This document shows, one piece after another, positions 1,515 to 51,399 of a DNA stretch of 51,399 bases. Below the pieces are notes generated by a model. That model had not been told where the DNA came from, did no database searches, and worked only from the letters and a program-made list of their open reading frames with translations. The translations under genes were made by a program, and so were the position numbers. Each line of letters opens with the position of its first letter. Position 1 is the first letter of the stretch. This stretch comes from Candidatus Moranbacteria bacterium UBA1362 (GTDB lineage Bacteria; Patescibacteriota; Minisyncoccia; Moranbacterales; GWC2-37-73), in contig DBRS01000008.1 in the NCBI GenBank assembly GCA_002306085.1, positions 1 through 51,399 on the forward strand, given 5' to 3'.

Positions 1515-1650
1515 CCCTCTTACTCCTCCCTTTGTTTTATATTCTGTTGAAATACCGACAAAACCTGTCTTATTCTCTTGTTAAACTACATTTTCATTCT
1601 GACAAGAATAGCACAAATAATAAATTTAGTCAAAACAAATCACAATATTT

Positions 1651-37216: not shown

Positions 37217-37319
37217 ATGTGTATATAATCTCTAATCTACACTAATTTTATCACTAATTATCTCTAATGCATTTATTCGCAATTTCGCACAGAATTCGAA
37301 AGATTCGCGATTTTTATCC
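37217..37319. repeat. Family A spacer element, copy 1 (rplR-rpsE)
   Basis: TCTCTAATCTACACTAATTTTATCACTAATTATCTCTAAT arm plus an ATTCG-periodic arm. Confidence 0.85.
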
Positions 37320-38291: not shown

Positions 38292-38385
38292 ATATTTTTC
38301 TCTAATCTACGCTAATTTTATTATCTTCACCACGTTTATTTGCGATTATTCGAACTAAATTCATGTTGATTCATGACTTCTATTC
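38292..38385. repeat. Family A spacer element, copy 2 (rpsH-rplF)
   Basis: Same arms; 33-nt identity with copy 7 including the start-codon region. Confidence 0.85.
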
Positions 38386-38790
38386 TTACCAAACCTCGCA
38401 AATCACTTCTCCTCCAAATCCGGATTTTTTTGCTTCGTCTCCAGTCATTATCCCCTTGGATGTCGAGATTATCGAGATTCCGTATCCGTTCTTGACTCTT
38501 TTTATCCCGCTCTTTCTTACATAAATGCGTTGTCCCTGATGGCTGACTCTCCTGATTTCGCGTATAGCCGGATTTTTTTCAGTGTTTGAAACCGTCTCAT
38601 ACTTTAGAGCTATCTTAATGATTTGCTTGCCGTCATTTTCTTCCTGTTTGACCGAATCTATGAAATTTCTTTGCTCTAAGATCTTAGCAATGGACATTTT
38701 CAGCTTCGAAAAAGGCACGGCAACTTCATTGTGCCTTGCTCTTTGCGCATTCCGTATTCTTGTGAGCATGTCTGATATTGGATCTAGCAT
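38386..38790 (-). CDS. rpsH: 30S ribosomal protein uS8
   Basis: DPISDMLTRIRNA and STSKG; start placed at ATG 38790. Confidence 0.98.
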   Translation of the reverse strand: MLDPISDMLTRIRNAQRARHNEVAVPFSKLKMSIAKILEQRNFIDSVKQEENDGKQIIKIALKYETVSNTEKNPAIREIRRVSHQGQRIYVRKSGIKRVKNGYGISIISTSKGIMTGDEAKKSGFGGEVICEVW

Positions 38791-38910
38791 ATTCTTATAA
38801 TTCAAAATTTAAATCTCAATGTAAAATTTTCATGTCGCTTCGCAACAACATCAAACATTCATGAGCGAAGCAAATACTGAAATATAATTTTTAATTTTTG
38901 GGTTTATTTA

Positions 38911-39189: not shown

Positions 39190-39744
39190 TCATTCTTTAT
39201 CGGACTTCATCGGAAATCCCAGCAATTTGAACAGTTCCAATCCTTCTTCATGTGAATTCGCATTTGTTGAAATCGTAACCTGCAAACCGAAAATGTTCCT
39301 AACCTTTTCGGGAGAAATCTCCGGAAAAATTATATGCTCTCTTATGCCTATATTCAGATTTCCCTTGCTGTCAACGGCTTTCTCGCTAATCCCCTGGAAA
39401 TCCCTGGTCCTGGGAAGAGTCGCGTTGATGAGCCTGTCAATAAATTGCCACATGCGAGCTCCTCTCATAGTAACCTTCACTCCTATCTCCATATTTTCTC
39501 TCACTTTAAATCCGGAAATTGCTTTTTTCGCTTTTGTCCTGACTGGTTTTTGGCCAGTAATAGCAGCCACAGAACTTGCCACTTCTTCGACTTTTTCACC
39601 TTCTTTTGCAAACTTTCCTATTCCAACATTAACAACAACCTTACCGATACGAGGTACTGCCATCGGACCCTTGTAACCAAATTTCTTTCTCATTTCTTCA
39701 ACAACGATCTTCGAATATTTTTCTTTTGCTGGAGTAATGTTCAT
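39190..39744 (-). CDS. rplE: 50S ribosomal protein uL5
   Basis: ITGQKP, AKKAISGFKVRE and PRTRDFQG. Confidence 0.98.
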   Translation of the reverse strand: MNITPAKEKYSKIVVEEMRKKFGYKGPMAVPRIGKVVVNVGIGKFAKEGEKVEEVASSVAAITGQKPVRTKAKKAISGFKVRENMEIGVKVTMRGARMWQFIDRLINATLPRTRDFQGISEKAVDSKGNLNIGIREHIIFPEISPEKVRNIFGLQVTISTNANSHEEGLELFKLLGFPMKSDKE

Positions 39745-40215: not shown

Positions 40216-40318
40216 AATTTTCTCTATATATAATCAACACTAATTTATCACTAATTATCTTTAATGTTTTATTCGCGATTATTCGGAATAAATCCGAGTA
40301 AATTCACAAACCATTGTC
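40216..40318. repeat. Family A spacer element, copy 3 (rplN-rplX)
   Basis: CACTAATTTATCACTAATTATC arm plus TTATTCGCGATTATTCG arm. Confidence 0.85.
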
Positions 40319-43589: not shown

Positions 43590-43690
43590 ATATTTTTCTC
43601 TAATCTACGCTAGTTTATCATTAATTATCTTCAATTCTTTTTATTCGTGATTATTCAAGACATAATTTGCGTTAATTTGTGATTTCTCTC
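43590..43690. repeat. Family A spacer element, copy 7 (rplB-rpsS)
   Basis: Same arms as copies 1-5. Confidence 0.85.
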
Positions 43691-44521
43691 TTACTTCTTA
43701 TGTCTTCTTTTTACTATAAATTTATCGCTATACTTTTTCTTTTTTCTCGTTTTCTTTCCAAGCGCCGGCTTTCCCCAAGGAGTTTTCGGGTTCTTCAAAC
43801 CGATTCCCTGTCTTCCTTCTCCTCCTCCATGCGGGTGATCAACCGGATTCATTGCGCTTCCGCGAACCGCAGGTCTTTTCCCCATCCATCTGCCTCTCCC
43901 GGCTTTTCCGATACTCATCGCTGAATGTTCAAAATTGCTTACTCTTCCAATCGTGGCGAAATTTTCGCTGCTTACCACTCTTATTTCTCCTGAAGGCATC
44001 TTTAGCTGCGCCATTTTTCCGTCAATAGCCCTGAGTGTTGCTCCACTTCCGGCACTCCTGATGATTTGCCCTCCTCTGCCGGAAATCAACTCCACATTTG
44101 AAACGATCGTACCGTAAGGAATATTTTTAAGAGCCGTTCTGTTGCCTTCCTTGATCGGCGCATTGAAAGACGACAAAATCTTTCCTCCCGCCTTCATTCC
44201 TTCTGTTGCCAGTATATATCTTTTGTCTCCATCATTATATGAAATCAAAGCTATCAAAGCACTCCTGTTTGGATCCTTTTCTATAGCAACGATCCTGCCT
44301 GGAATATCAAATTTCTGCTGTTTAAAATCAATAAGCCTGTAGCGTCTTTTGTGCCCGCCTCCCTGATGCCTTACCGCAATTTTTCCATTTGATCTTCCAG
44401 CCTTGTTTTTGATCGGAGCAAGCAAAGACTTCTCCGGCTTTTTATCGGTAAGTTCATCTGGCTTCACAATCGACATATTTCTTCTGCCAGCAGTATTCTT
44501 TTTGTAAACCTTTATGGACAT
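43691..44521 (-). CDS. rplB: 50S ribosomal protein uL2
   Basis: [15 protein letters not shown] and [13 protein letters not shown]. Confidence 0.99.
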
Positions 44522-44589
44522 ATGTTCTCTAATCTATTCTAATTTTACCATTAATTATCTCCAGCTTTTTTATTCGCTATTTCTATTCT
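44522..44589. repeat. Family A spacer element, copy 8 (rplW-rplB, truncated distal arm)
   Basis: TCTCTAATCTATTCTAATTTTACCATTAATTATCTCC then TTATTCGC. Confidence 0.8.
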
Positions 44590-44973
44590 CTATGCTCCTT
44601 TGAACAACTCTATTTTATCGCCTTTCTTTAATGTGACCGTCGCTTTTCTCATTCCTTGTTTTATCGCCAAATGTCTTCCGTATGATTTCATTTTCGCCTT
44701 GGTATTAACTACGGTGACTTTCTTCACTTTTACGTCATATATGCCTTCAATCGCCGTTTTTATCTGCTTTTTCGTTGCGCCCTTAGCAACCTTGAATGAA
44801 TATTTATCATTGCTGATAGCGCTGTGCGTCTTCTCCGTTATCCACGGCTCTACCAAAACCTTGCTGGAAATGGCAACATTGATGTCAAAAGCAGAGTTGT
44901 CTTCTTTTTTCGACAATTCTTTCGCAACCCTTTTTGCTTTTTTATCATCTCTCTTTGTTTCAACAATTGCCAT
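44590..44973 (-). CDS. rplW: 50S ribosomal protein uL23 with an N-terminal extension
   Basis: P-x-ITEK, ATKxQIKxAIE and KATVTLK. Confidence 0.95.
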   Translation of the reverse strand: MAIVETKRDDKKAKRVAKELSKKEDNSAFDINVAISSKVLVEPWITEKTHSAISNDKYSFKVAKGATKKQIKTAIEGIYDVKVKKVTVVNTKAKMKSYGRHLAIKQGMRKATVTLKKGDKIELFKGA

Positions 44974-45055
44974 AATATTATTCCTATCACAAATTAACTT
45001 TAATCTATAAATGAATTCTCACTAATCACTTGCGTTCATTGACAAATTGAAAGAA

Positions 45056-45691
45056 TTAGATCTTGTTGCCAAACTTCTTTTCCAGAAAATTTATCGATTC
45101 CTTGCTTAATAGCAAATATTTGTTATTTAGCAAATCCATTACATTCAAATCCTTTGTGAAAATATTTTTGACACTTCTGATGTTTCTGCTAGCCAAAACA
45201 CTTTCCTTTTCAGTGTCAGCAAAAGAAACCAAAACTTTGCCTTTAATCTTTAGTTTTTCCAGAATTCCCGCAAATGTTTTAGTTTTAGGCTTCTCCAGCT
45301 TCAGAAAATCCAATGCTATCAATTCCTTGCTTCGTAATTTATCGCTAAGCGCGATTCTTACGGCTTTCTGTTTCATTTTACTGTTCAGATTTCTCTTAAA
45401 ATTCCTTTCGCTTGTAGGTCCAAAAGATATTCCCCCGCCTTTCATTATCGGGTTTCTTTTCTGTCCTTGTCTGGCGCTTCCTGTTCCTTTTTGCCTAAAT
45501 GGTTTCTTTCCGCTTCCTGCCACTTGTCCCTTGCCTTTCGTATGTGCTATCGAACTTCTCTGATTCCCTGAAATCACCATGAAAACTTGATGGAGAAGCT
45601 TATCATTTTTCTTCTCATTGAAAACAGAATCTGAAACTTTCAGATCTTCAATTTTCTTGCCGTCAAAATTGTGAATAGCTATCGTTGCCAT
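45056..45691 (-). CDS. rplD: 50S ribosomal protein uL4
   Basis: TK-x3-V-x-GSGKKPFRQKGTGxAR and GG-x2-FGP. Confidence 0.97.
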   Translation of the reverse strand: MATIAIHNFDGKKIEDLKVSDSVFNEKKNDKLLHQVFMVISGNQRSSIAHTKGKGQVAGSGKKPFRQKGTGSARQGQKRNPIMKGGGISFGPTSERNFKRNLNSKMKQKAVRIALSDKLRSKELIALDFLKLEKPKTKTFAGILEKLKIKGKVLVSFADTEKESVLASRNIRSVKNIFTKDLNVMDLLNNKYLLLSKESINFLEKKFGNKI

Positions 45692-45811
45692 ATTTAATCT
45701 TTATATCTAACTAAAATACAAACCTCATTGCAAATTTACAAATATACGAAACGCTTTTAATTTGTTTTTATACATTCGCAAATCTGCAATTGATTCGTAA
45801 TTCGTTAGAGC
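45692..45811. repeat. Periodic imperfect palindrome, family C (rplC-rplD spacer)
   Basis: CAAAT/TACGAA units versus ATTCGCA/ATTCGTA units; inverted match to the rplJ element. Confidence 0.75.
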
Positions 45812-46372
45812 TTATCCTCTTATTTCAACTATTCTTCCGACAACTCCAGGCACTCCTCCGAGAACTGCCAAAATTTTTCTTTTTGGGTCTACATGGGCAA
45901 TTTTCATATTTTTCACGGTAACTCTTTCTCCTCCCATGCGCCCGGCCATCTTTTTCCCTTTGATAACATGCTGCGGCTGCTGCGCACCGATTGATCCGGG
46001 AGCCCTGTGATCATGCTTGTGGCCGTGTGTCTGCGGAGCTCCTTTAAAACCATGCCTTTTCATGGCGCCCTGGAAGCCCTTGGCTTTGGAAATTCCGCTT
46101 ACTTTCACAATGTCTCCAACTTGAAAATTTTCAACCGTAACTTTGCCGCCTATTTCTATCGATTCATCACTCTCAAGGCGAAATTCTTTGCGGTGAACTC
46201 GCTTTTTGGTTTTTAGAATCTCAAGCTGAACAGAAGAATAGCCGTTTTTCTCTTTGCTCCTTACGGCTGAAATGGTGTTTGGCTGACACTCAATTAGCGT
46301 CACACTCAAAGCCCCCTGTTTCTTGTCATACAGCGTCGTCATTCCCAATTTTTTTCCGAGGATACACTTCAT
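45812..46372 (-). CDS. rplC: 50S ribosomal protein uL3
   Basis: GKKLGMT, GYxxVQ, KAKGFQG, PGSIG and GKKMAGRMG. Confidence 0.97.
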   Translation of the reverse strand: MKCILGKKLGMTTLYDKKQGALSVTLIECQPNTISAVRSKEKNGYSSVQLEILKTKKRVHRKEFRLESDESIEIGGKVTVENFQVGDIVKVSGISKAKGFQGAMKRHGFKGAPQTHGHKHDHRAPGSIGAQQPQHVIKGKKMAGRMGGERVTVKNMKIAHVDPKRKILAVLGGVPGVVGRIVEIRG

Positions 46373-46465
46373 ATTCTCTAATCTACTCTAATTTATCATT
46401 AATTATCTCCAATTCTTTTTCGCGATTATCCAAAATACGATTCGCGTGGATTGGTGATTTTATCA
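46373..46465. repeat. Family A spacer element, copy 9 (upstream of rplC)
   Basis: TCTCTAATCTACTCTAATTTATCATTAATTATCTCCAAT arm plus TTCGCGATT/ATTCGCG arm. Confidence 0.85.
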
Positions 46466-46648
46466 ATAAAAATACTGGCCTCAAGCCAGCACATCAGGGT
46501 TAATCCTGATTAGCTAGTTGAGTATCCAGCTCTTTGCAAGCAAAGAAACTGGACTTTAACTAGTTGCATACTAATGCGAAACTGCGAATACTCTCCGAGC
46601 GAACACATAAGGCTTTTGGAGAGCGCTTTCGCGGCACGCTTTCAAATG
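46466..46648 (-). ncRNA. Candidate cis-regulatory leader/attenuator between rpsJ and rplC
   Basis: At least five hairpins, ending in GCUGGC-UUGAG-GCCAGU-AUUUUU. Confidence 0.55.
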
Positions 46649-46978
46649 CTACATCTTTATTTCTACATCAACCCCGGCAGGCAAATCCAAACTTGTCAGA
46701 TTTTCAATAGTCTTCGGTGTCGGATTCCAGATATCAATCAATCTTTTGTGGATTCTCATTTCATATTGATCGCGCGCGTCCTTATCCACGAATGTCGCTC
46801 TATTGACAGTAATCTTATGAATTTCCGTTGGAAGCGGAACCGGACCCGTTATTTTCGATCCTGATCTTTCCGCAGTTTCCACGATTTTGCGCGCTGATTG
46901 GTCTATAACCTTATTGTCGTACGCTTTAATCTTGATCCTGATTCTTGTTGATTGATCTGTGTCTTTTTTCGCAGCCAT
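46649..46978 (-). CDS. rpsJ: 30S ribosomal protein uS10
   Basis: [15 protein letters not shown] and HKRLIDI. Confidence 0.98.
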
Positions 46979-47049
46979 CGAGGTACTTTACTTCTTTTAA
47001 TAAATAACGACTTAATTTTTTAGCCACTTGTTGCATCAAGTGAACACAA

Positions 47050-47075
47050 GCAGACATATTGTACAATATGTCTGC
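47050..47075 (-). terminator. Perfect 26-nt palindrome after tuf (terminator or processing hairpin)
   Basis: GCAGACATATTGTACAATATGTCTGC; weak U-tract. Confidence 0.6.
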
Positions 47076-47090
47076 ATAGTTTACTCGAGG

Positions 47091-48281
47091 TTATTTTAGA
47101 ATCTTGGTTACTGCTCCCGCTCCCACAGTTTTTCCTCCTTCACGAATCGCAAATCGCATTCCTTCTGACATGGCAACCGGAGCAATAAGTTTAATCTTTA
47201 GGTTAACGGTATCTCCGGGCATAACCATTTCGGTTCCTTCCGGCAAAATAACTTCTCCCGTAACATCGGTTGTTCTCACATAAAACTGCGGCTTGTATCC
47301 TTTGAAAAATGGAGTATGCCTTCCGCCTTCTTCTTTTGTCAAAACGTATATTTCACCTTCAAATTCGGTGTGAGGAGTGATTGAGCCCGGTTTCGCAAGA
47401 ACCTGTCCGCGGGCAACATCTTCCTTCTTGATTCCGCGAAGCAGAAGTCCGGCATTATCGCCAGCTTGTCCTTTGTCGAGAGATTTATTGAACATTTCCA
47501 CTCCGGTAACAACTGTTTTTGTTGTAGGTTTAAGCCCGACAATTTCAACTTCCTCGTTCAAATTGATAACGCCACTCTCAATTCTTCCGGTAACAACAGT
47601 TCCGCGTCCTTCAATCGAAAAAATGTCTTCGATAGGCATAAGAAACGGCTTGTCAATGTCACGAACTGGTTCAGGAATCTTTGTATCAAGAGCCTGGATG
47701 AGTTCAAGTATGGGTTTAGCATCAGCATCATCAGCCGATTTGGCTTCAAGAGCCTTGAGAGCTGATCCTCGAACAACTGAAGCATTGTCACCATCAAATT
47801 CATATTTCGAAAGCAATTCTCTCACTTCTGCTTCAACAAGGTCAATAAGCTCAGGATCGTCAACCATATCAACTTTGTTGATGAAAACTACTATCGCAGG
47901 CACACCGATCTGGCGAGCCAAAAGTATATGCTCACGAGTCTGCGGCATAGGTCCATCAGTTGCGCTTACAACCAGAATTGACCCGTCCATCTGGGCAGCA
48001 CCCGTAATCATGTTCTTGATGTAGTCGGCGTGTCCGGGACAATCAACATGCGCATAGTGTCTTGTGTCAGATTCATATTCACAGTGCGATGTAGCAATGG
48101 TGATTCCACGCTCTTTTTCTTCCGGAGCATTATCGATTTCAGCAACATTTTTTTCTTTTGCAAAGCCCTTAAGGCTCAAGACATGCAAAATAGCCGCGGT
48201 AAGAGTGGTCTTGCCATGGTCGACATGTCCGATTGTTCCCACGTTCACATGGGATTTTGTTCGTTCAAATTTACCCGCCAT
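47091..48281 (-). CDS. tuf: Elongation factor Tu
   Basis: [25 protein letters not shown] and FAIREGG. Confidence 0.99.
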
Positions 48282-48458
48282 ATTGATTTTTGTCGCGAAA
48301 CGCTATGGCTTTCGAAAAGCCAAACATATCGCACGTTATAAGATAACTTTTTATGAATTGTATGAATTGATTAATTCAGTCCTCTCAAAACCGCGCTTGT
48401 TATACCTTTTTTCAGGCAAACACAAAAATCTCCTTTGTCTAAAAACAGTACATTGCTT

Positions 48459-48486
48459 ATTCTACACGATAAATAAAACTTGTCAA
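48459..48486 (-). promoter_or_regulatory. Putative tuf promoter
   Basis: TTGACA, 16-nt spacer, TAGAAT on the minus strand. Confidence 0.6.
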
Positions 48487-48587
48487 GAGTCATTACCATA
48501 CCCGCCAGTACACCCCCGAAATGTGAAAAATGACATATGGCAGGAAAAATTTGAAACATCTGTCCAGCTAAACAACGCCTGTGCATC

Positions 48588-49697
48588 CTATTCTTGATTC
48601 ATTTGGAAAATAAGCCCCTTAAAATTTTTGGCTATCTGCTGAAGAACGGTATCTTTAGGAATTGGAGTTCGGAGAGAATAATCCTTGGAAACCGCCAAAT
48701 TGCCGTTTTCATCTTCCGAGATTACCTTAAAATAATATACCGTTCCAGCCTTCAATGTTGTCAGAACAGCCGCATGTTTTATTGTTTTTTTATCGCTTAT
48801 GACTATTTTTTTTCTTTCGCCGTTAGTCCCTTCGCTATACTCAAGCACCGTCGTTGCCGGAAAATTTGTTTTCCATGAAATTATTGTCTGCACCTTGTTC
48901 TGAGGCTGCAGATGATTTTCGTTTTGGACGTTAGAAATTTTAAGAGTCTTGTCTTCTTCTGTTGCTTCTTCAGCATCATCAATACTTTCGACATTTGTAA
49001 AATCTGTTTGCTGAACGACCGCGTTTTCATAAAAACTTTCCTTGTTTTCCTGTTGAAGCACAATCATGTTCCGAATTTCATCTGTTGTACATTTGGGAAT
49101 AATAGGTTCTCCGGTGGTAAAAACCTTGATTGGATCTTTTCCTTCTCCCCAGGAAAATACTTTCTTTGCGTTGGAAAAGTCGGCTGAATCAGAAGCAACA
49201 ATTTGGAAATAGTACTGATTCCCTTCCTTGAGATTATTTATCGGTATCATGTGCGTAACCGCATAGTCGGATTCTTCGCTTTTTGCCACCATTTTTTTAA
49301 GATTTTCGTCTTCATAAACTTCCACATAAGCCTTGGTCGCAAGCGGTTTTTTCGCATCCCTCGCGTTGAGTGTTTTGAAAATAACAGTAGCTTGATTTTT
49401 TGAAACGTTTCCGATCAAAATATCTCCACGCCCGCTTGGAATATATATCTCCGCCTTATAGGTAACAGGAAGAATTGCGGGACCTATTACGACCCCCAAG
49501 AGCAAAAGTACTATTCCACCAACAAAAGACATGAATATTTTTCGCACCTTCTTTTGGTGCTTTTTGAGCTGAGTGTAGGAATAGAATTTCTTTTTCCCGC
49601 TATGCGATAGAATAATTTGGTTTTCAGCCGCGCCGAAAAAAATCATGCTAAAATATTCTTCCAAAAACGCAATCAATCGTTTCATGTTTTTTTTCAT
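48588..49697 (-). CDS. Membrane-anchored protein with Fn3/purple-acid-phosphatase-N-like domains
   Basis: One TM helix, then two beta-sandwich repeats (H-x5-L-x2-G-x2-Y(Y)F; ISWxT...YYFKV). Confidence 0.78.
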   Translation of the reverse strand: MKKNMKRLIAFLEEYFSMIFFGAAENQIILSHSGKKKFYSYTQLKKHQKKVRKIFMSFVGGIVLLLLGVVIGPAILPVTYKAEIYIPSGRGDILIGNVSKNQATVIFKTLNARDAKKPLATKAYVEVYEDENLKKMVAKSEESDYAVTHMIPINNLKEGNQYYFQIVASDSADFSNAKKVFSWGEGKDPIKVFTTGEPIIPKCTTDEIRNMIVLQQENKESFYENAVVQQTDFTNVESIDDAEEATEEDKTLKISNVQNENHLQPQNKVQTIISWKTNFPATTVLEYSEGTNGERKKIVISDKKTIKHAAVLTTLKAGTVYYFKVISEDENGNLAVSKDYSLRTPIPKDTVLQQIAKNFKGLIFQMNQE

Positions 49698-49730
49698 ACT
49701 TTTGTGTTTGTATTTGTGGTTAACGAAAGA

Positions 49731-50888
49731 TTACATGATAAATCCGATCTTTTCCTTCACTTCTTTTATTTTTTTCTCGGCAAGCGGACGGGCTTTCTCC
49801 GCGCCTTCTTCAAGAATTTTCAAAACCTCTTCATTCGAAAAATCCTTGAATTTCTTTTGGAAGGGCTCGAGAAATTTTATTATTTCTTCTGACAGGTCGT
49901 TTTTGAAATCAGCATAGCCTCTGCCTGCATACATTTTTTCAATTTCTTTTGAAGTTTTTTCTGAAAATGCTGAATATATATTGATAAGATTTTTGAGTGC
50001 AGGCTTGTCGTCGCTGTAAACTATTTCGTTTCCGCTGTCCGTGACGGCTTTTTTGATTTTTTTCTTGACCGTTTCAGCATCATCAAGAAGTCCGATGTAG
50101 TTGTATTCGGATGTCGCCGATTTTGACATCTTTTTTGACGGATCATCCAAACCCATGATTCTCATGCTTTCTTTAGTGATATGCGACTCCGGCACGACAA
50201 AAGTTTCGCCAAACTTGCTGTTGAACCTTTTCGCCAAAGTTCTTGTCAGCTCCACATGTTGCAACTGGTCCTCACCGACGGGAACAACCTCAGTGTCATA
50301 CAAAAGAATATCTGCCGCCATCAGAACTGGATAATCAAAAAGACCGACGCCTGGTGAATTAAATCTCTCGATTATAAATTTTTTATAAACATCGGCAGCA
50401 GCATGTGTTGCAGTTTTATAAACAGCATCTATGGCTGCCTCCTTATCTTGTAAAAGAAACAATTTTTCTAATTGATCTGTTCTTATAAAATCTTTAAGCT
50501 TCCTATCTCCTAACTCTCTCAATTGTTTTTCAAAAAACTCAAAGTCTAATCCAGTCTTATCTTTAAATTGAGTCATTTTATTAAGATCTCCATTTTTTGT
50601 AAGTGTATTCAATATCCACATAAGTTCCGCATGTTCTTTCACATGCGACTGGATGAATATTGCAGATTTTTTAGGGTCAATTCCCGCAGCAAGATATATC
50701 TTGGCAATTTCCAAAGTTTTCTCGCGCAAAACTTCGGGATCTTGCGGAATCGTGATCGCATGCATATCAACAACGCAGAAAATGGACTCGTACTCGTCCT
50801 GAAGTTTCACCCAATTTTTGATCGCGCCCAGATAGTTTCCGATATGCAGTTTTCCGCTCGGTTGTACGCCCGAAAAAATTCGCGCCAT
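49731..50888 (-). CDS. trpS: Tryptophan--tRNA ligase with an internal insertion
   Basis: SGxQPSGxLHIGNY, YPVLMAADIL, VPVGEDQ and KMSKS. Confidence 0.97.
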   Translation of the reverse strand: MARIFSGVQPSGKLHIGNYLGAIKNWVKLQDEYESIFCVVDMHAITIPQDPEVLREKTLEIAKIYLAAGIDPKKSAIFIQSHVKEHAELMWILNTLTKNGDLNKMTQFKDKTGLDFEFFEKQLRELGDRKLKDFIRTDQLEKLFLLQDKEAAIDAVYKTATHAAADVYKKFIIERFNSPGVGLFDYPVLMAADILLYDTEVVPVGEDQLQHVELTRTLAKRFNSKFGETFVVPESHITKESMRIMGLDDPSKKMSKSATSEYNYIGLLDDAETVKKKIKKAVTDSGNEIVYSDDKPALKNLINIYSAFSEKTSKEIEKMYAGRGYADFKNDLSEEIIKFLEPFQKKFKDFSNEEVLKILEEGAEKARPLAEKKIKEVKEKIGFIM

Positions 50889-51031
50889 AAAACAAAAATC
50901 TAGTAAGATATGATTATCATTGTTTTAATATTACCTAAAGTTGCTTCTTTTTGCAACAAAAAATTTCAACCAGTCTTAAAAAGTTGAAATTTTTTTGAAT
51001 CTTGAAACAGAAATTAAATTTTATTTTATGC

Positions 51032-51399
51032 TCAGCTCACATTTAATCCGCTAGGTGCAGCTGGTGGAGTGGTGTCTCCAGTTTCACCACTTTCATTTCC
51101 CTGATAATCGACAGCCGTCACTTTGTATTGCGTCGAACCATCCTGATTCCCGAGCCAATCGACATAGGTAAACGCTCCATCCTGATCATAGTCAAATGTC
51201 GCGGGAATTGAAGCTATGCGACGTTGTTGAATTGCTGAAGGCTCCGATCCGTCTTGCGCATATATATTATAGTAACGCACATTATCGCCATTTGCAGGCG
51301 CATTCCATGAAATCACATATTGTCCATCGGCAGTAGCAGGTGATTGTCCATGCGCATAAGCTACGTTTGAAGGGTTCCCTGGCCGCGCGGTTTCGAAAT
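51032..51399 (-). CDS. C-terminal part of an extracellular Fn3-domain protein (partial, starts beyond the window)
   Basis: Frame open from the edge (FETARPGNPSNVAYAH...ISWNAP...YNIY...YKVTAVDxxGNES...DTTPPAAPSGL). Confidence 0.8.
   Translation of the reverse strand, partial: FETARPGNPSNVAYAHGQSPATADGQYVISWNAPANGDNVRYYNIYAQDGSEPSAIQQRRIASIPATFDYDQDGAFTYVDWLGNQDGSTQYKVTAVDYQGNESGETGDTTPPAAPSGLNVS

Follow-up and report, generated by a model that had tools for sequence, protein, structure and literature searches.

A candidate uS8-sensing transcription attenuator between rpsJ and rplC in Moranbacteria-type Patescibacteria

The spacer between rpsJ and rplC in a Moranbacteria genome carries a structured RNA element that is conserved, shows extensive covariation, occupies a fixed place in the gene order, contains an internal loop identical to the core of the Escherichia coli S8 site, and has two nearly isoenergetic, mutually exclusive folds. 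The element is probably (at a probability of roughly 0.6) a uS8-sensing “OFF” attenuator that acts in cis on transcription, and not a relocated uL4/uL3 leader. It was found in the stretch of Candidatus Moranbacteria bacterium UBA1362 DNA analyzed here, referred to throughout as the window, whose full length is 51,399 nucleotides. All positions are those of the window, and all RNA motifs are read on the mRNA, which corresponds to the minus strand.

The rpsJ-rplC spacer and its conserved motif

The genes that surround the element, tuf (47091-48281), rpsJ (46649-46978), and rplC (45812-46372), are all encoded on the minus strand. The gene 5' of the leader, rpsJ, encodes uS10 (Pfam PF00338, E 1.5e-35), and rplC, which encodes uL3 (PF00297), would be the first gene under control of the terminator described below. 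After rplC the gene order continues with rplD, rplW, rplB, rpsS, rplV, rpsC, rplP, rpmC, rpsQ, rplN, rplX, and rplE, followed by rpsN, rpsH, rplF, rplR, rpsE, rplO, secY, adk, and map. The first genes past the terminator are rplC and rplD, with Pfam matches to L3 and L4. The gene for the proposed ligand, rpsH (38386-38805, minus strand; PF00410, E 1.8e-45), is the fifteenth gene 3' of the leader in the same cluster and on the same strand, and the uS8 that it encodes retains the RNA-contact motifs S-T-S and R-I-Y. Farther upstream, between tuf and rpsJ, positions 47050-47075 form a perfect 11-bp hairpin, GCAGACAUAUUGUACAAUAUGUCUGC, with no U tract after it, which may serve as a stabilizer or processing site.

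At 276 nucleotides (46373-46648, minus strand), the rpsJ-rplC spacer is long for such a junction. Its structure exceeds chance, as the minimum free energy (MFE) of -82.9 kcal/mol compares with -62.2 +/- 4.4 kcal/mol for 200 dinucleotide shuffles, none of which folds as well (z -4.7). A preliminary description of this DNA had listed a series of stems in the spacer, all of which are found on the mRNA strand: CGC-GAAA-GCG, CUCUCC/GGAGAG, the interrupted helix CUAGUU..UCCAG..UCUUUGC/GCAAAGA..CUGGA..AACUAG, AUCAGG/CCUGAU, and GUGCUGGC/GCCAGUAU followed by UUUU. It had also described the end of this RNA, before rplC, as terminator-like, and a consensus scan indeed calls GUGCUGGCUUGAGGCCAGUAU with its UUUU a terminator at 46492-46472. 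The same description had taken about 180 nucleotides to form one structured RNA; of these, the segment 46468-46575 is conserved, and about 70 nucleotides, comprising the CGC-GAAA-GCG and CUCUCC/GGAGAG stems, lie outside the conserved element. The spacer was searched against 60 relatives, and rpsJ-rplC spacers were aligned from 14 loci having both genes. Conservation is confined to the middle of the spacer, approximately mRNA positions 74-181 (window 46468-46575), and delimits a motif of roughly 100 nucleotides.

The sequences on either side of this motif are of quite different kinds. Immediately after the rpsJ stop codon, folding indicates an irregular, lineage-specific hairpin (46576-46648, minus strand) made of the CGC-GAAA-GCG and CUCUCC/GGAGAG stems; no counterpart of these first 73 nucleotides was found in the spacers of the relatives. 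A loosely similar insert, rich in GCGAAA/CGAAU, occupies this position in one relative (L013). In several genera the hairpin is replaced by a conserved AT-rich block (GGGCUUGCAUUAUUUUGAGAAAUGGUUUAAUAUAGAU). Situated between rpsJ and the leader, this block, GGGCUUGCAUUAUUUUGAGAAAUGGUUUAAUAUAGAUAAGUUAGAAAAA, is found at about 1600-1650 (minus strand) in L102 and likewise in other g11/g7 genomes, and it holds an extended -10-like TGGUUUAAU. The block may be a dedicated promoter of the rplC operon. A simple promoter scan makes no call on the block in these relatives and finds no promoter directly 5' of the motif in the window. At the other end of the spacer, a copy of a dispersed intergenic repeat of about 90 nucleotides (46373-46464, minus strand; copies 72-84% identical) abuts the rplC start codon and lies outside the leader. 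Further copies occur in the window at 43596-43685, 44525-44581, 40231-40290, 37229-37284, and 38298-38379, so placed that the repeat of about 60-90 nucleotides stands directly 5' of the start codons of several ribosomal-protein genes. The repeat is present also on other contigs (C11 and C16) and in relatives, in many copies in some (for example, G015).

Read 5' to 3', the conserved motif consists of CUAGUU-N-AAGU, a variable hairpin (P2), AUACU-N'-AACUAG-C(C/U)A(G/A), a second variable hairpin (P3), (G/A)CUGGCU, a loop, GCCAG, and a tract of 5-8 U residues. In the window the basal helix, P1, is formed by the 5' strand CUAGUU (46558-46563) and the 3' strand AACUAG (46514-46519); in the S8 site its counterpart is the lower helix (16S 588-593 for the 5' strand), and covariation in P1 is seen in both model-based and MAFFT alignments. 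Above P1 lies an asymmetric internal loop. Numbered as in 16S rRNA, its 5' half (46553-46557) is N594, here A, followed by the invariant AAGU at A595 A596 G597 U598, and its 3' half (46520-46525) is A640 U641 A642 C643 U644 followed by N'645, here C. The upper helix and terminal loop of P2 (46526-46552) vary in sequence and length and covary strongly in both alignments. The P2 pair adjoining the loop is C:G in 68 of 68 sequences from within the order, and G:C or A:U in a family outside it (f65). P3 (46493-46510; AUCAGG-AUUAAC-CCUGAU) is likewise variable and covarying, with compensatory changes in four of four modeled pairs, and lies within the predicted antiterminator. The motif ends in the intrinsic terminator (46468-46492), with stem GUGCUGGCU/GGCCAGUAU, loop UGA, and U tract at 46468-46472; the scan identifies it, it appears in the full-length MFE fold, and six of its six modeled pairs covary.

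A covariance model (R1) built from 13 spacers and covering 46468-46575 matches 168 of the 319 genomes of the order, representing 79 of its 106 genera. Each genome has a single match, except for one (G054) with a second, weak match. Of the in-order copies, 71 were fetched, and every one is a sense-strand element of the rpsJ-rplC spacer; many begin 0-10 nucleotides past the rpsJ stop and end 12-40 nucleotides short of the rplC start. Two further models were made, R2 by rebuilding on 68 diverse copies and R3 from the hairpin only. In a class-level search all 17 matches fall in the rpsJ-rplC spacer in the sense orientation; four families outside the order contribute 8 of these (R2), and R3 adds one copy, again in this spacer, from a genome of another class of the phylum. 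Altogether, 89 of 89 copies checked follow rpsJ and precede rplC in the sense orientation. One other match (G769, E 0.009) was taken as false, being coding-like sequence accompanied by neither rpsJ nor rplC. Named public records with the motif are mostly Candidatus Moranbacteria, Moraniibacteriota, Parcubacteria, or Patescibacteria, as are, by name, most of the 87 matches from an exact-pattern scan of all species genomes. Among exact-pattern matches in records labeled as other phyla, 19 of 20 tested are chance occurrences that lack the full motif; the remaining one, L269, is labeled Gammaproteobacteria and is probably a mislabeled bin.

Covariation across the rpsJ-rplC spacers of relatives, which the preliminary description had named as a check on its reading, is present, and the structure is conserved. 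In an alignment of 68 sequences fitted to the covariance model, standard pairs fill 95% of pair cells and compensatory changes affect 17 of 23 pairs, a level reached in 0 of 500 shuffles; partners slid out of register pair in only 26-44% of cases. An independent MAFFT alignment of the hairpin alone is 98.7% paired, with seven pairs changed on both sides. Among relatives, P1 is exchanged for CUCGUU/AACGAG, CUAAUU/GAUUAG, and UUAGUU/AACUAA. A variant in family f65 (L183, L184, and L189-L191) keeps AAGU/AUACU and has a long P2 with a G:C or A:U closing pair. Its downstream platform differs, with GCCAAUUU pairing with AAAUUGGU, and the geometry of its switch may differ as well.

The internal loop and the uS8 site of 16S helix 21

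Between the variable helices P1 and P2, the internal loop is nearly invariant. Its AAGU is found in 68 of 68 sequences, as are, on the 3' side, the A, A, C, and U at 640, 642, 643, and 644; position 641 is U in 66 sequences and A in 2. The loop AAGU/AUACU is identical at nine of nine positions to A595 A596 G597 U598/A640 U641 A642 C643 U644 of E. coli 16S rRNA, where it occurs in the same setting of a helix, an asymmetric internal loop, and a second helix. The E. coli sequence GUUAAGUCAG...CUGAUACUGGCAAGC was confirmed in all 5426 complete genomes, with numbering taken from the annotated rrs gene. Exactly these nine nucleotides have been defined as the S8 core, which includes the triples (G597-C643)-U641 and A595-(A596-U644) (PMC4176348). 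In the same core, which also includes A640, the invariant A642 stacks on a conserved Ser-Thr-Ser peptide, and natural sites have N at 641 (PMC4176348). The sole variable position of the leader loop is 641 and thus coincides with the position that varies in natural S8 sites. The hairpin as a whole, therefore, has the form of a helix-21-type uS8 site, an asymmetric loop of A595 A596 G597 U598/A640 N641 A642 C643 U644 between two helices.

Comparison of the leader with 16S helix 21 also shows where the likeness ends. The same nine core nucleotides and the same topology are accompanied by flanking helices that are unrelated in sequence. The flanking positions 594/645, non-canonical or wobble in both, are U.G in E. 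coli and A-C, C-A, A-G, U-A, or U-G in the leaders. R3 compared with E. coli 16S and with the organism's own 16S and 23S gives no match at helix 21, because the family-specific sequence of P1 dominates the model. The 911-kb genome has only three helix-flanked AAGU...AUACU sites, of which the leader, with seven upper and six lower pairs, far surpasses the other two. No helix-flanked AAGU/AUACU site occurs at rplE (39190-39744) or elsewhere in the cluster. Another of the three sites is on a different contig, in an ORF-free stretch with the look of a structured RNA gene that may, judging from its sequence, encode RNase P RNA.

The helix 21 of the order itself complicates this comparison. In 30 of 30 genomes examined (L194-L223; the organism's own 16S is at G000:C11:1021-2600), the helix-21 core is UAGU/AAACG, so that the leader, which agrees with the generic bacterial core at nine of nine positions, agrees with that of its own order at six of nine, differing at 595, 641, and 644. 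The nucleotides common to both, all of them in contact with S8, are A596, G597, U598, A640, A642, and C643, which include G597, A640, and A642, the positions of base-specific or 2'-OH contacts with uS8. The UAGU/AAACG core of the order is itself a departure, at 595 and 644, from the usual bacterial AAGU/A(U/A)ACU, and these changes probably give a re-registered base triple.

Because it is identical to the core of the uS8 site in 16S helix 21, the invariant internal loop points to uS8 as the ligand. The preliminary description had instead suggested uL4 or uL3, and had viewed the element as a lineage-specific ribosomal leader relocated behind rpsJ. The first part of that view holds in that a conserved attenuator-type leader with an intrinsic terminator does stand ahead of rplC; the suggestions of a uL4 or uL3 ligand and of a relocated S10 leader are not supported. 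A permissive cmscan of 44000-51399 against Rfam 15 (E up to 10) returned nothing in the spacer, so that no relation to the E. coli S10/L4 leader can be detected. Even so, the same attenuator architecture might be built around a hairpin that binds another ribosomal protein of the cluster, such as uL4, as in the S10 operon of E. coli, or uL3. As rpsH is about 8 kb downstream, the ligand may be one of these proteins, which are encoded nearer the leader by rplC and rplD, the first genes beyond the terminator. A precedent exists in E. coli uL4, which triggers termination in the S10 leader (PMC10931766), and the three positions at which the leader core departs from helix 21 of the organism also fit a ligand other than uS8. 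However, a chance coincidence between nine invariant loop nucleotides and exactly those of the S8 core is unlikely, Rfam offers no ribosomal leader match, and motif searches of the organism's own 23S rRNA, made with mimicry of a uL3 or uL4 site in mind, revealed no counterpart of the loop. Another ligand from the cluster, such as uL4 or uL3, is accordingly considered unlikely. The 23S rRNA gene of this genome (L170; G000:C14:3958-7403) is 3446 nucleotides long as compared with a 2925-position model, with insertion(s) of about 0.5 kb.

Terminator, antiterminator, and the proposed switch

The GC-rich hairpin and U tract upstream of rplC, conserved and covarying, are those of an intrinsic-terminator attenuator. 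Thermodynamic prediction adds an antiterminator that shares sequence with the sensor helix and cannot coexist with the terminator. Its 5' strand, UCAACUAGC (46513-46521, minus strand), overlaps U644, N'645, and the whole P1 3' strand, and its 3' strand, GCUGGCUUGA (46481-46490, minus strand), identified from predicted folds and duplex energies, is also the 5' half of the terminator. When the window transcript is cut before the 3' half of the terminator, P1 is predicted to be open and UCAACUAGC (46521-46513) to pair with GCUGGCUUGA (46490-46481) around P3. Folded at full length, the RNA of the window has almost the same energy in the terminator state (-39.8 kcal/mol) as in the antiterminator state (-39.4 kcal/mol), and the MFE structure of the whole spacer likewise shows the antiterminator.

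Similar behavior is predicted in the relatives. The segment that follows P1, (CU)AGCCAG or AGCUAA, is complementary to the terminator 5' half, CUGGCU or GCUGG. Transcripts ending before the terminator 3' half fold into the antiterminator in 58 of 63 cases, and P1 is intact in 37 of 63 full-length MFE structures. Pairing of the P1 3' region with the terminator 5' half has a mean duplex energy of -8.2 kcal/mol versus -3.8 kcal/mol for shuffles, and complementarity is kept where the terminator differs, as in L146 (GGCUU/AAGCC), L156 (CUAGCC with GGCUAG), and G723 (CCUGUG with UGCAGG). Covariation of the antiterminator was assessed in two registers, in which 88% and 80% of pairs are compatible, no better than in column shuffles. 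As covariation does not exceed what conservation yields, the antiterminator model rests on energetics and these few helix-level swaps.

From these structures a negative feedback loop can be proposed, in which binding of uS8 and ligand-dependent termination are the steps that we infer from sequence and from modeled folds. The hairpin of P1, internal loop, and P2 (46514-46563) would copy the docking site for uS8 in 16S helix 21. When rRNA is limiting, free uS8, the product of rpsH, would bind this hairpin and clamp P1, so that neither the P1 3' strand nor the CCAG/CUAA after it could pair with the 5' half of the terminator. With the antiterminator thus blocked, the terminator at 46468-46492 would form, RNA polymerase would stop before rplC, and expression of the S10-spc string would fall. 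When uS8 is instead consumed by rRNA, the weak 6-bp P1 would be displaced and the antiterminator (46513-46521 with 46481-46490, around P3) would form, allowing read-through into rplC and the genes beyond, rpsH included.

The same observations bear on simpler explanations. A ligand-free element, either a constitutive partial terminator or stabilizer that sets the ratio of tuf-rpsJ to downstream expression or an independent small RNA of about 110 nucleotides, would be in keeping with conservation of the terminator and, in several genera, with the conserved promoter-like AT-rich block and its TGGUUUAAU before the motif. A plain terminator, however, leaves the nine invariant loop nucleotides, the covarying P1 and P2, and the alternative fold of equal energy unexplained. 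For a small RNA the difficulty is one of space, since a motif that starts 0-10 nucleotides after the rpsJ stop, as in many genomes, leaves no room for a promoter of its own in those genomes, and the AT-rich block is not called by a simple promoter scan. Such an element is quite improbable. A small-molecule or ion riboswitch acting on ribosomal-protein synthesis would share the OFF-switch architecture typical of that class, and no known family matches; it is nevertheless very improbable. Conservation is limited to 9 nucleotides of internal loop in one hairpin, and no junction, pseudoknot, or contact between loops is conserved. In addition, the loops of P2 and P3 are free to vary, the genes around the element are all ribosomal, and the internal loop equals a known protein site.

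Several known RNA motifs were also considered for the loop and the flanking sequence. A K-turn was set aside, as there is no tandem G-A, and an 11-nucleotide tetraloop receptor or AA platform was set aside because loop sizes differ and no GNRA loop is conserved. A boxA was set aside because it would be on the wrong strand.

Relation to known regulatory sites and implications

The closest known relative of the proposed regulation by uS8 is in E. coli, where an mRNA mimic of helix 21 at the start of rplE mediates repression of the “spc” operon by S8 (PMC3616713; PMC10931766); this site is confined to Gammaproteobacteria (PMC3616713, PMC10931766). Both elements are mRNA copies of the helix-21 loop, with the A-(A-U) triple, the G-C pair, and the bulged A, and in both, as proposed here for the leader, uS8 would exert negative feedback on an operon that contains rpsH. 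The E. coli operator, which overlaps the start codon of rplE, acts by blocking translation, whereas the present element lies between rpsJ and rplC, 12-180 nucleotides upstream of the rplC start, is tied to an intrinsic terminator and antiterminator, and heads the whole S10-spc string. Beyond the core, the two sites have no sequence in common.

Other leaders resemble the element in its mode of action rather than in its sensor. As in the E. coli S10 leader, an intrinsic terminator that is proposed to respond to a ribosomal protein would govern rplC, rplD, and later genes. The S10 leader, however, is upstream of rpsJ and uses hairpins HD and HE, while the present element is 3' of rpsJ in 89 of 89 copies; moreover, control in E. 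coli involves uL4 and NusA at a paused complex and mimicry of 23S domain I, and the Rfam scan detects no homology between the two. In the L10(L12)4 and L20 leaders of Bacillus subtilis, a protein stabilizes an anti-antiterminator helix and so favors the terminator (PMC10931766), a logic like that proposed here, although the proteins, RNA folds, and operons are all different.

The searchable literature yielded no account of an attenuator responsive to uS8, or of any ribosomal-protein leader in Patescibacteria. A 2024 review regards the regulation of the spc and S10 clusters as unknown outside Gammaproteobacteria and sees no advance in phylogenetic work on uS8 autoregulation (PMC10931766). In the same review, the regulation by uS8 that is known is translational and limited to E. 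coli and Vibrio, other phyla being unexplored (PMC10931766). The principle of recognition in the present case is thus already known; the RNA family, its location, and its proposed mode of action are new.

A broader interpretation, for which the odds are about even, is that in Moranbacteria-type Patescibacteria a single uS8-sensing transcription attenuator at the rpsJ-rplC junction is the master feedback valve of the S10-spc string of more than 20 genes. Such a valve would extend uS8 riboregulation for the first time beyond Gammaproteobacteria and, also for the first time, to transcription, and it would use the ancestral bacterial helix-21 core despite drift of the lineage's own rRNA site. The element is a concrete candidate in that it combines a short RNA, a predicted ligand, a clear structural model of the ON and OFF states, and more than 160 natural variants. 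The mismatch between the core of the leader and that of the rRNA in the same lineage bears on how much variation in its site uS8 tolerates. If the interpretation is true, a mimic of helix 21 has been recruited independently to attenuation, as opposed to a block of translation, and at another place in the cluster, and the element would provide a first view of the control of ribosome synthesis in the uncultivated, reduced-genome bacteria of the CPR.
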